A stretch of 64,000 nucleotides of DNA from Lachnospiraceae bacterium. GTDB lineage: Bacteria; Bacillota; Clostridia; Lachnospirales; Lachnospiraceae. Position numbers and translations under genes: made by a program. The stretch lies in the NCBI GenBank assembly GCA_051880495.1, contig JBJEOB010000051.1, positions 1,507 to 65,506 on the forward strand, written 5' to 3'. Below, piece by piece: positions 13,218-15,736 of this stretch. How positions within the stretch are numbered: the first letter of the stretch is position 1; the number at the start of each line of letters is the position of its first letter. The notes beneath the pieces were generated by a model, which was given only the letters and a program-made list of their open reading frames with translations, was not told the origin of the DNA and did not search any database.

Positions 13218-13901
13218 TTATATTAATTCTGCTACCAGATAAAGCGCTACAAGATGCAACGGATAAAAAAGATAAAACAGGTACTTCATCTTAGGTCCCT
13301 GTCTGCCGTTATACATCATTAAAAGCACTGTGCTTAGGGCAGAATATTTCTGAATTCCGACGCCCCAGATTAACTGAAGACCACACGAAAAAATATGTTT
13401 TGACCAGAAGTTTTCTCTTAATGTATAAAAAATATATACCAGCATCACACCAAAACATCCGTAGTCTGTGCGCATCACCTCGGCAAACAGCGCAAATATG
13501 GCAAATGATAAGCCTCCCAAAAGCTTTGATGCCATCGCATCAGGTATTTTTTTACTGATAAAATCAAGAACCATAAGTCCCAACAATGCCATCAGAAATG
13601 TAAACAGCACGTTCTGGTGTAGGGGATTGATTTTCCCGTAGAATGCAATATCAAATACAGGTTCTGTTATCAGCGCAAATATAAGCATTCTAAATACATA
13701 CTTTTTTTTGCTTTTCGTATGATAAAAACCTTCCGCCACAAAAAAAGCAAATATTGGAAATGACAATCGCCCTATTACCCTCAGCCATGTTTTTCCCGGG
13801 AACAGTATAAATCCCATATGGTCAATGAACATGCAAACCATGGCGGTTAATTTAAGTGTAAAGCCATCAAGGCACTGTATTTTTTTTATAAATTCTTTCA
13901 T
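13218..13901 (-). CDS. TraX-family membrane protein
   Basis: LKLTAMVCMFIDHMGFILFP...IGRLSFPIFAFFVAEGFYHT is the typical TraX signature, and the protein is polytopic. Its start overlaps the upstream stop as ATGA. Confidence 0.8.
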   Translation of the reverse strand: MKEFIKKIQCLDGFTLKLTAMVCMFIDHMGFILFPGKTWLRVIGRLSFPIFAFFVAEGFYHTKSKKKYVFRMLIFALITEPVFDIAFYGKINPLHQNVLFTFLMALLGLMVLDFISKKIPDAMASKLLGGLSFAIFALFAEVMRTDYGCFGVMLVYIFYTLRENFWSKHIFSCGLQLIWGVGIQKYSALSTVLLMMYNGRQGPKMKYLFYLFYPLHLVALYLVAELI

Positions 13902-15736
13902 TCCTTTATCGTTCCAATCAGAACTGCAATAGAACGCTCGCCAACCTCTATACCGCGCGATTCGTTCATTTTCAAAATATCATGCTCCCTGCCGGAGGAA
14001 TCAATTACCACCTTCCACTGCATACCTTCCGGAAGCGAAGGAAGTGCCAGTGTATGCTTCTCCCAGTGCAGATTGTACGCCACATAGATGAAATCATCCT
14101 CTGAGCCGTCAGGTTTTGTGGCATAGTATTTTCCGCAGTACATTACGCCAAAATGTCTGTTGTAGTTTTCAAAACTTGCAAACCAGGCGTTGCCACTGTG
14201 ATATGAAACATCAGGGTAACAGCACGCCTTATAATCCATGTCTCTAAGCGGTGTTTCCATGTGAAGTATTCCATGTTGTTTTCTAAATGCAATGAGTTCC
14301 TTTGTAAATTCAAAGATTTCTTTATTACTGTCAAGATTCTTCCAATTAAGCCATGATATTTCGTTATCCTGGCAATAAGCATTATTATTGCCGTTTTGTG
14401 AGTTTCCGAATTCATCACCTGCATAAATAAGCGGTGTTCCCTGACTTAGCAAAACCATCATAAGAGCATTTTTAATCTGCTTATTTCTCAGCTCAACAAT
14501 CTTCTTTTTACGGCATTTTCCTTCTACGCCACAGTTCCAGCTGTTATTGAAATCCTCGCCGTCACGGTTATTTTCACCATTGTCTTCATTATGCTTACGG
14601 TCATAGCTAACCAGATCCATAAGCGTAAATCCGTTGTTGTCCGCCATGTAATTGATTACGGCAGTATTGGTTTCGTTTGCCTTCATATGCATAACAAAAT
14701 CATTTAACTGGTTTTCATCGCCCTTAAGCAGCTTTCTTGCACAGTTCATAAAACCCTGATTATAATTGGCAAGATTTTTATATGAACGAACATTTCTTTT
14801 AGTATTCCAGTAAGTTGTAAAAAGCTTCACTCTTGAAAGCAGCGGGTCATTGGCAATAGTCTCAAGCACCGCGTCACTGCAGTTAAGATGAACGCCGTCA
14901 ACATGATACTCTACAACCCAGTGTCTTACACAGTCACAAATCATATTGATTCCCGTGTCATATGGGAAGAACATTTCAACAATGACCTCTATTCCCTCTT
15001 TGTGGAGTGCACGTACCATTTTCTTGAACTCAACCGTATAATCCTCATTTTTGCTGCTGTTTGAAGAATATGCCGCCTTAGGCGCAAAATACATTCCTTT
15101 TGCATATCCCCAGTAATTGACCTTACCGTTAAACTGCGGGTTATACATGGTATTCTTATCATTTGGCGTCCACTTCTGTACCTCTTCAAATTCGAATACA
15201 GGCATCAGTTCAACCGCCGTAATTCCAAGTTCTTTAAGATATGGAATCTTCTCGACAACGCCTGCATACGTACCCTTGTTTCTGACTTTTGAACTTAAAT
15301 GTTTCGTAAATCCGCGTACATGAAGCTTATAAATGATTGTATCCTCATACGGTGTATTAAGATTCAAATCATCTTCCCAGTCAAATGCATCAAGCATAAC
15401 CTTGGAACGATAGCCGTCTTCCCTTACAGACTGTCCGAACTCATAAACATCGCAGATATGCTTTGCATACGGGTCAAGCTGCTGCTTATCTCCTATTACA
15501 TAATTGTATTCCAGCTTCGAAAAATCAATTCCGGATACCATGACCGCAAAAATATCGCCAAACTTATATTTTTCATCCAGCACGATTGAATAAAGCGGCT
15601 TTTCGCTGCCCTTTTCAAAGAGATTTAAAACAATCTCCTTATTTCGTGAAACCATGGCAAAATTATATCCGTCTTCTATTCTGTTCACTCCCGGATTCAT
15701 TGGATTTCCAATTGAAACTCTTAGCTGCTGATTCAT
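13898..15736 (-). CDS. GH13 glycogen-debranching (GlgX/isoamylase)-like protein with substituted catalytic residues
   Basis: Strong family signatures are present: NYWGY, [11 protein letters not shown] and [33 protein letters not shown]. However, conserved regions I-IV read [24 protein letters not shown] and ADNNGF (see finding). Confidence 0.8.
   Translation of the reverse strand: [612 protein letters not shown]

Follow-up and report, generated by a model that had tools for sequence, protein, structure and literature searches.

The window analyzed here is a stretch of 64,000 nucleotides from a Lachnospiraceae bacterium (positions 1,507 to 65,506 of contig JBJEOB010000051.1, assembly GCA_051880495.1), and it encodes on its minus strand a GlgX/isoamylase-like open reading frame (ORF), here labeled X (Table 1), whose product is a conserved pseudoenzyme and not a pseudogene. 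On balance, and with modest confidence, we regard X as a cytoplasmic, noncatalytic paralogue of GlgX that most likely recognizes alpha-1,4-glucan chains (glycogen or maltodextrin) without cleaving them and whose function would be one of binding, sensing, or scaffolding. Whichever small protein is translated together with X would then convey the output of X. In the genome that supplied the window, this partner would be a TraX-family membrane protein; X would be made from the transcript of the pot operon, and TraX would be made by termination-reinitiation at an ATGA overlap of the two genes, at the tail of the potABCD operon. Glucan binding, a physical interaction between X and TraX, and any physiological role are what we infer.

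The signature positions of X were read in two ways, by HMMER alignment to solved isoamylase, TreX, and GlgX chains and by a MAFFT alignment that included Escherichia coli GlgX (NC_000913), and the two readings agreed. In E. coli GlgX, the four GH13 regions read IEVILDIVLNH (region I), HVDGFRFD (region II), KLIAEPWD (region III), and TAHDGF (region IV). All nine signature residues of these regions, as found in true GlgX proteins, were replaced in X. The triad of active GH13 enzymes (Asp in region II, Glu in region III, and Asp in region IV) was represented by N285, T308, and N368, and the conserved residues of the -1 subsite (Asp and His in region I, Arg in region II, and His in region IV) were represented by E254, Y259, H283, and N367. 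An earlier note on this DNA had claimed by eye that all four regions are altered and that the triad and both His residues are lost; alignment with the characterized enzymes bore this out, and the numbers that it gave for Asn285, Thr308, and Asn367-Asn368 were exact. In addition to what that note described, approximately 44 residues between regions I and II were found to be deleted in X. The deleted segment corresponds to the beta3-alpha3 loop (G270 to N307 in E. coli) and includes the conserved GCGN motif. As judged from these alignments, every residue for chemistry at subsite -1 has been lost and X cannot act as a debranching enzyme.

The same loss was found throughout the relatives of X. Among 121 close homologues (47 to 97% identity; about 600 to 650 residues), none had the full signature and 120 lacked the nucleophile Asp. 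A scan of one genome per species yielded 27 short-type (X-like) loci and 53 ordinary GlgX loci from many phyla, and the nine signature positions read DNHRDEDHD in 53/53 true GlgX proteins and in 0/27 short-type relatives. Where the short-type loci could be identified below the order level, they belonged to Lachnospiraceae or to Blautia, Butyrivibrio, Acetatifactor, Oribacterium, Faecalimonas, Mediterraneibacter, or Limivivens. An exhaustive search covered 1.84 billion representatives, and the signature and triad were missing from 149 of the 150 top-ranking clusters (50% identity); the exception was a true GlgX, the first one to appear, at rank 148. The clade comprises about 150 clusters at 50% identity, with named members that are all Lachnospiraceae or other Clostridia, and a search of metagenome contigs for close relatives of X returned none above 46% identity. 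In a neighbor-joining tree, the dead proteins formed one bipartition, set apart from all true GlgX proteins by a branch of 0.23. The dead-GlgX clade is old and monophyletic, and it evolves faster than the true GlgX of Lachnospiraceae, mean pairwise identity within this family being 40% for the dead clade versus 59% for true GlgX. At least 90% conservation was seen at 121 columns of the dead clade; when the 160 columns conserved to this degree in true GlgX were followed into the dead clade, 66 were kept identically, 21 were deleted, and 72 were relaxed.

A decaying pseudogene that is still open by chance would also lack its catalytic residues and evolve faster than true GlgX, and one relative of X (L115) is indeed split into three ORFs. 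This explanation is already refuted, however, by the selection and conservation data, and we give it virtually no weight. In comparison with the 97%-identical copy in L111, from a pig-gut metagenome, dN (nonsynonymous substitution rate) was 0.014 and dS (synonymous substitution rate) was 0.175, giving a dN/dS ratio of 0.08 that was near the ratios of the flanking genes in the same pair (0.06 for potD and 0.03 for potA). The frame of X was also intact in L083, L084, and L112 at 70 to 76% identity, where dS was saturated, and full-length X-type ORFs persisted down to 37% identity in the roughly 150 clusters, with the 121 conserved columns described above. The split copy in L115 (positions 4245 to 5921) differed from the intact copy in L114 (positions 4260 to 5960) by 20 insertions or deletions in 1.8 kb at 98.3% identity, which looks like an assembly error and not like decay. 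Taken together, the intact frame, the low dN/dS ratio, the predicted isoamylase fold, and the clade-wide loss of catalytic residues fully support the view, already taken in the earlier note, that X is a pseudoenzyme rather than a pseudogene, and purifying selection, which that note had proposed as a check, was confirmed.

We also considered the possibility that X is a cryptic enzyme, catalyzing a reaction on alpha-glucan or another substrate with substitute residues such as E254 and H283, since E254 was fixed in 121/121 and H283 in 117/121 close homologues and since some clade members have Asp or Glu at the old acid/base position or Asp in region IV. Across the wider clade, however, the first of these positions varied as E, Q, or D and the second as H, R, or Q, and no member combined Asp at the nucleophile position with both other acids. 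The nucleophile column held Y, N, V, I, L, M, K, and other residues, and the acid/base column held V, T, E, D, P, Y, and others. Because these residues are chemically unrelated, the pattern argues for released constraint and not for a replacement active site, and hidden catalysis by X seems very unlikely.

X was confirmed as GlgX/isoamylase-like by its uninterrupted 612-codon frame, by its match to the alpha-amylase catalytic domain PF00128 (53.6 bits; cutoff, 22), and by its matches to solved chains. It scored below the cutoffs of the GlgX equivalog TIGR02100 (345 versus 640.9 bits) and of PRK03705 (260 versus 901 bits). The best solved relatives were isoamylase, TreX, and GlgX (E values of 1e-78 to 1e-60), debranching enzymes of the type that belongs to CAZy subfamily GH13_11. 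An AlphaFold2 model of X was built on 38 family members (predicted local distance difference test score [pLDDT], 78.8; predicted template modeling score [pTM], 0.86), and Foldseek matched it to ISA1 of rice, Arabidopsis, and Chlamydomonas, to TreX of Sulfolobus solfataricus, and to GlgX of Streptomyces venezuelae, with E values of 1e-48 to 1e-40 and template modeling (TM) scores of 0.75 to 0.81. The PF00128 match and the predicted isoamylase-type fold place X in the GH13 family, and the three-domain isoamylase fold is predicted to have been kept, in agreement with the earlier suggestion that the fold is preserved. Confidence in the model was low for residues 378 to 406, 444 to 467, and 500 to 525. 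X shares with GlgX the family blocks NYWGY, YHxDG, NGFTLxDLVSY, KHNExNGExNxDG, NxSWNCGxEG, and GDExGxxQxGNNNxYCQDN, and the motifs quoted in the earlier note, NYWGY among them, were all found in the translation. No signal peptide and no transmembrane or other hydrophobic segment was found in X, and the protein is therefore predicted to be cytoplasmic. Compared with the solved enzymes (2WSK, E. coli GlgX; 7U39, S. venezuelae GlgX; 2VNC, S. solfataricus TreX), X shares the predicted three-domain fold and the family blocks, and like GlgX it lacks a signal peptide; it differs from GlgX in being about 80 to 100 residues shorter, in the deleted GCGN loop and the replaced signature, and in belonging to a separate, faster-evolving clade. 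Two long homologues were noted, one (P0022) with a long Thr/Gly/Ala-rich low-complexity insertion between the N domain and the barrel (residues ~105 to 200) and one (P0107) with a Lys/Glu/Ala-rich low-complexity tail of about 90 C-terminal residues. A Rosetta-stone fusion of X to TraX was rejected, as these insertions and tails are not TraX.

A list of sugar contacts is available from the complex of S. venezuelae GlgX with acarbose (PMC9530166). These contacts were mapped onto X through the HMMER alignment, with the chain index equal to the number in the paper plus 3 (checked on H271, D342, E378, and H449), and their conservation was counted in two clade sets of 145 and 149 sequences (about 294 members). 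Six of the 11 acarbose-contacting residues were kept in X, and these form the aromatic platform and the outer-subsite contacts (Table 1); the residues corresponding to H271, D342, E378, H449, D450, and R212 were lost. Five of the six kept contacts were 97 to 100% conserved when aromatic swaps were counted, W310 being the weaker one. The counterparts of E388, N452, and Y454 in S. venezuelae GlgX, namely, E470, N534, and Y536, touch the outer sugars of acarbose (PMC9530166). In X, these three residues lie in the block from beta7 to the beta8 loop (N362 to W465), the best-conserved part of the protein, which also holds the majority of the 66 columns that are identical in true GlgX. The aromatic platform and the outer-subsite contacts are thus under strict selection, while the residues for cleavage are gone. 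Because the outer-subsite contacts are conserved while the catalytic residues are lost, it is plausible that X still binds alpha-glucan chains without cleaving them, and this conservation is the chief, if indirect, argument for such binding. Binding of cyclic di-GMP, as by S. venezuelae GlgX, was set aside as a property of X, since the motif is Streptomyces specific, with not even E. coli GlgX or TreX having it (PMC9530166).

The stop codon of X overlaps the start codon of traX as ATGA, and the bases and ORF positions confirmed both this overlap and the placement of the pair between potD and a two-component system on the same strand, as the earlier note had described. The TraX protein is a full-length member of PF05857 (139 bits against a cutoff of 25; E value, 2.8e-40; positions 4 to 216 of 217) and has five or more hydrophobic segments. 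In its full-length match and polytopic topology it resembles F-plasmid TraX and TrbP. In contrast to these, it is chromosomally encoded, and it scored far below the equivalog cutoffs (34.9 versus 149 for TIGR02755, 27.9 versus 419 for PRK13706, and 38.9 versus 206 for PRK13882 [TrbP]); no conjugation genes were found near traX, whose neighbors are the pot genes and the two-component system. Both scores and gene context place it outside the F-type TraX pilin acetylases and TrbP. TraX proteins count as borderline cases within the transmembrane acyltransferase (TmAT) superfamily, and the one activity known for them is acetylation of F-pilin (PMC12423673).

In close relatives, traX directly followed X in L111 (ATGA overlap), L112 and L113 (11-nucleotide [nt] gap), L084 and L085 (overlap), and L083. 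The same arrangement was found in five distant relatives with 38 to 45% identity, namely, L005 (5-nt gap), L012 (ATGA), L023 (overlap), L039 (1-nt gap), and L041 (ATGA), with spacings of -53 to +5 nt; L012 and L041, which have the same ATGA overlap as the window, are 39 to 41% identical to X. Since the deepest clade branches are among the traX-linked lineages, the linkage either is ancient or has recurred. A TraX gene within 10 kb was found in none of the 53 true-GlgX loci, and the association of TraX with X relative to those loci gave a Fisher P value of 0.003, not corrected for phylogeny. The X-TraX coupling is real, ancient, and lineage restricted. In L083, a relative with 71% identity, potD and X are separated by an insertion (positions 417 to 7900) that encodes a Fic protein together with all parts of a type I restriction-modification system (HsdM, HsdS, and HsdR); the X-TraX pair is intact despite the upstream insertion.

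TraX is not the only partner. A DUF5662 protein (PF18907; about 180 residues) was encoded directly after X in 13/27 loci, with spacings of -41 to +23 nt and with ATGA overlaps in L009, L010, and L015. The X-DUF5662 pair was also present in the genome of the isolate Muricomes sp. OA1 (L114) and in an assembly of the Mediterraneibacter type (L116), both with the order gltX, a UvrD-like helicase gene, DUF1292 (opposite strand), a gene for a periplasmic-binding-protein-type lipoprotein, X, DUF5662, and luxS (opposite strand). In a third group, consisting of L086, L118, and L120 (Lachnospira type; L120 is a metagenome-assembled genome [MAG] of a Lachnospira sp.), the gene for a soluble TPR-like protein of 295 to 317 residues overlapped X; this protein matched no Pfam family, and a HAD hydrolase gene and the trp operon came next. 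The 295-residue protein of L086 had been considered as a divergent TraX, which was ruled out because it is soluble and TPR-like. L119 had no close downstream partner of X.

DUF5662 was the most frequent tightly coupled downstream neighbor of the dead-GlgX gene. In this protein, which shows 65 to 90% identity between genera, numerous His, Asp, and Glu residues are invariant, including a HHKGRNKHHYEYW motif; it is called "catalase" in some records. It had no sequence match in the PDB and no informative NCBIfam hit, its AlphaFold2 model (pLDDT, 70.8) had no fold match below an E value of 2.6, and no paper on it was found in the searchable literature. Upstream of X, a lipoprotein of the periplasmic-binding-protein type (Peripla_BP_1/4) was encoded directly adjacent in L012, L013, L041, L048, L114 (positions 3230 to 4234), and L116 (positions 3249 to 4244), either with a gap of 9 to 29 nt or with an overlap. 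In four of these lipoprotein-X loci, luxS was found just downstream on the opposite strand; it was not seen in L012 or L041. The window parallels these loci, as the product of its upstream gene, potD, is also a substrate-binding lipoprotein. A different neighborhood was seen in seven true-GlgX loci (L026, L027, L028, L035, L038, L049, and L051), in which two proteins were encoded beside glgX that by eye resemble a STAS-type anti-sigma antagonist (the small one) and a SpoIIE/PP2C phosphatase (the one of approximately 555 residues). The sources of these loci are taxonomically diverse (cyanobacteria, Anaerolineales, Dyadobacter, a Methanobacteriaceae MAG, and others), and five of the seven belong to the ten true GlgX proteins that lie nearest the dead clade.

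The close coupling of X to its neighbors could also mean that the GH13 fold has been kept as a protein-protein platform or chaperone for a partner in the membrane or a small soluble one (TraX or DUF5662), with no carbohydrate role. Such a function would be comparable to that of the SLC3 heavy chains rBAT and 4F2hc, GH13-like noncatalytic partners of SLC7 transporters that are membrane-anchored ectodomains and are disulfide linked to these transporters. Like them, X is a GH13-derived protein without a triad that is genetically tied to a polytopic membrane protein; in contrast to them, X is predicted to be soluble and cytoplasmic, belongs to the isoamylase branch, and has a membrane neighbor of the TraX type. 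Overlaps or gaps of no more than 23 nt tie X to one or the other gene in 18/27 relative loci and in the window, the X-TraX pair stays together when its surroundings change (as in L083), and glycogen genes are absent from the neighborhood. Yet X has no membrane anchor, its partner changes among lineages, and the strongest constraint falls on residues that touch sugars in the solved GlgX complex. Moreover, in the same genome pairs, TraX diverged faster (47 to 54% identity) than X (70 to 76%), which is unexpected for a tight obligate complex. We consider a purely structural role improbable.

Several observations weigh against glucan recognition by X or against a specific link to TraX. The beta3-alpha3 loop of GH13 proteins helps to form the cleft; with the loop of approximately 44 residues deleted and 72 columns relaxed, the cleft of X may no longer hold glucan. 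The conserved "sugar-contact" residues could have been kept for structural reasons instead, and E388, N452, and Y454, on which the argument for binding draws, lie in two of the low-confidence stretches of the model (residues 378 to 406 and 444 to 467). A glycogen metabolism gene was found near X in 1/27 relative loci (L024, glgB-like) and in none of the window. The scarcity of such neighbors is weak evidence, because only 5/53 true-GlgX loci have one within 10 kb. The recurrent neighbors of X are housekeeping genes (gltX, the UvrD-like helicase gene, DUF1292, luxS, trpS, and the trp operon). With respect to the partner, the conserved GlgX-like/TraX pairing that the earlier note had raised was upheld insofar as it recurs with ATGA overlaps in distant lineages, but TraX stands beside X in just 5/27 species-level loci. 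The partner varies among TraX, DUF5662 (in about half of the loci), and the TPR-like protein with a HAD hydrolase, and this variation weakens the case for a specific X-TraX mechanism.

The earlier note had also compared X with plant ISA2, and in part this comparison held. Like ISA2 of rice (9J6X_C) and Arabidopsis (9XVI_C), X belongs to the isoamylase lineage, is catalytically dead, and has been maintained by selection with its fold retained, and in both proteins the nucleophile position is nonacidic (PMC12218847). Orthology did not hold: X is closer to ISA1 and GlgX (E value, 1e-78) than to ISA2 (E value, 6e-43) and belongs to a separate clade of independent bacterial origin, and its co-translation with TraX, DUF5662, or a TPR-like protein has no counterpart in plants. 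In functional terms, plant ISA2 is the nearest analogue of X. If the analogy extended to mechanism, X would form a heteromer with the catalytic GlgX of the same cell and tune its activity, specificity, or stability. The losses in X are of the same type as those in rice ISA2 (I458, D495, and S566 for D432, E488, and D561), which is inactive yet enhances ISA1 (PMC12218847), and ISA2 chains gave significant sequence and fold matches to X. The X type and true GlgX both occur in Blautia, Butyrivibrio, and Mediterraneibacter, although in different species representatives, and two glgX homologues have been noted in Blautia obeum ATCC 29174 (review, PMC10395257). However, X never adjoined a true glgX gene in the 27 relative loci or in the window, X is not an ISA2 orthologue, and the partners co-translated with it do not include GlgX. 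A helper function of this kind therefore seems doubtful.

An equally tentative elaboration of a glucan-recognizing role is that X serves as the soluble glucan-sensing subunit of an unrecognized Lachnospiraceae module. By way of the co-translated partners, the state of the glycogen/maltodextrin pool might thereby be linked either with a process at the membrane or envelope or with a signaling step. The partners in such a module would be a TraX-type transmembrane acyltransferase-like protein in certain lineages and the His-rich, structurally unmatched DUF5662 protein in others, and X would be a regulatory pseudoenzyme with a new output and not a debranching helper in the style of ISA2.

Table 1. 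Coordinates of X, its remnant and retained motifs, and neighboring genes in the window, with retained sugar contacts and partner genes in relatives
Feature	Position	Strand	Remarks
X, GlgX/isoamylase-like pseudoenzyme gene	13898..15736	-	612-residue ORF, frame intact
Region I remnant, E250-Y259	14960..14989	-	E. coli GlgX D261/N265/H266 replaced by E254/P258/Y259
Region II remnant, D280-N285 (DGVHLN)	14882..14899	-	R334 replaced by H283; nucleophile D336 replaced by N285
Region III remnant, T308-N311 (TYWN)	14804..14815	-	Acid/base E371 replaced by T308; W310 kept
Region IV remnant, N367-N368 (within ADNNGF)	14633..14638	-	H442 replaced by N367; transition-state stabilizer D443 replaced by N368
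W209-G210-Y211 of NYWGY	15104..15112	-	Aromatic platform of -1 subsite, retained
Block N362-W465 (beta7 to the beta8 loop)	14342..14653	-	Best-conserved part; carries E388, N452, Y454
S. venezuelae GlgX W222, W209 in X			W in 145/145 and 147/149
S. venezuelae GlgX Y224, Y211 in X			Y or F in all of both sets
S. venezuelae GlgX W380, W310 in X			Weaker; W or F in 131/145 and 84/149
S. venezuelae GlgX E470, E388 in X			145/145 and 144/149
S. venezuelae GlgX N534, N452 in X			145/145 and 148/149
S. venezuelae GlgX Y536, Y454 in X			Aromatic in all of both sets
X/traX stop/start overlap	13898..13901	-	ATGA on minus strand, four shared bases
traX, TraX-family polytopic membrane protein gene	13218..13901	-	227 residues; PF05857 match
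potD-X spacer	15737..15756	-	20 nt, with GGAG ribosome-binding site 8 nt before ATG
potD	15757..16809	-	Directly upstream of X
potABCD-type ATP-binding cassette (ABC) transporter genes	15757..19479	-	Directly upstream of X
Receiver-domain protein gene	12444..13199	-
Hybrid histidine kinase gene	9419..12454	-	1011 residues
DUF5662 gene directly after X			L003, L004, L006, L008, L009, L010, L014, L015, L020, L022, L048, L064
DUF5662 gene directly after traX			L012, L039, L041
DUF5662 gene in further X loci	L114 6001-6561; L116 6001-6537
TPR-like partner gene	L086 9881-10768; L118 6887-7840; L120 6928-7815

The genes upstream and downstream of the X-traX pair are in the same orientation. A terminator was looked for in the potD-X spacer and none was present, and no convincing terminator was found between any of the genes from pot through the two-component system; potABCD and X are probably co-transcribed. 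Scans of the window for promoters and terminators gave only background levels. The order potABCD-X-traX was also found in L084, L085, and L111. The transporter genes are context for X and not a demonstrated functional partner. Downstream, the end of traX is separated by an 18-nt gap from the gene for the receiver-domain protein, which in turn overlaps the hybrid kinase gene by 11 nt. The receiver-domain protein has a single good REC domain (residues 134 to 244) and lacks an output domain, and its N-terminal half matched nothing in Pfam; in the kinase, a long hydrophobic stretch at the N terminus precedes HisKA, HATPase, REC, and weak Hpt domains. This two-component pair is lineage-specific context, being absent downstream of traX in L083, L084, and L112.

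The window as a whole (positions 1 to 64000) had no match to any Rfam family and no tRNA, and it contained neither a glycogen gene nor a DUF5662 gene. The region upstream of trpS (positions 22701 to 23783, plus strand) was likewise without an Rfam match, although a T-box might be expected there. Elsewhere on the minus strand, a protein of 1,297 residues (positions 29071 to 32964) combines Reg_prop beta-propeller repeats with an HD domain of the HD-GYP type (HD_5) and, at its C terminus, a receiver domain, and a protein of 775 residues (positions 24881 to 27208) combines TPR repeats with DUF4037 and DUF4125 and is adjoined by a MerR-family regulator gene (positions 24144 to 24785). Among the few plus-strand genes is one for a P-type cation ATPase (positions 38728 to 41487), which contains two antisense ORFs (positions 38871 to 39890 and 39975 to 40523, minus strand) of 339 and 182 residues; these ORFs matched no family and are probably spurious.

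In the searchable literature, no description of a bacterial noncatalytic GlgX clade was found. What is new here is a GH13 pseudoenzyme that is bacterial, independently evolved, and equipped with unusual partners. Public records name the members of the clade "glycogen debranching protein GlgX," "glycogen operon protein," or "alpha-amylase family glycosyl hydrolase," names that imply an activity that these proteins, judging from their residues, cannot have. Counts of carbohydrate-active enzymes and metabolic reconstructions that include X-type genes would therefore overstate debranching capacity. Blautia, Mediterraneibacter, and Faecalicatena, all represented among the relatives of X, are examples of Lachnospiraceae, which rank with the most abundant bacteria of the gut. 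Glycogen storage has been proposed as a niche adaptation trait in gut commensals (PMC10395257). X would be a bacterial, independently evolved counterpart of plant ISA2, and cultured carriers of X-type genes exist that could show what role a dead isoamylase may have outside starch synthesis; orthologues are on record for Faecalicatena contorta (WP_153921291.1), Muricomes sp. OA1/Hungatella hathewayi (WP_025657756.1), and Eubacterium sp. am_0171 (WP_055154587.1). Finally, the tight linkage of X to TraX and DUF5662, families without a known chromosomal function, may provide an entry point to both.

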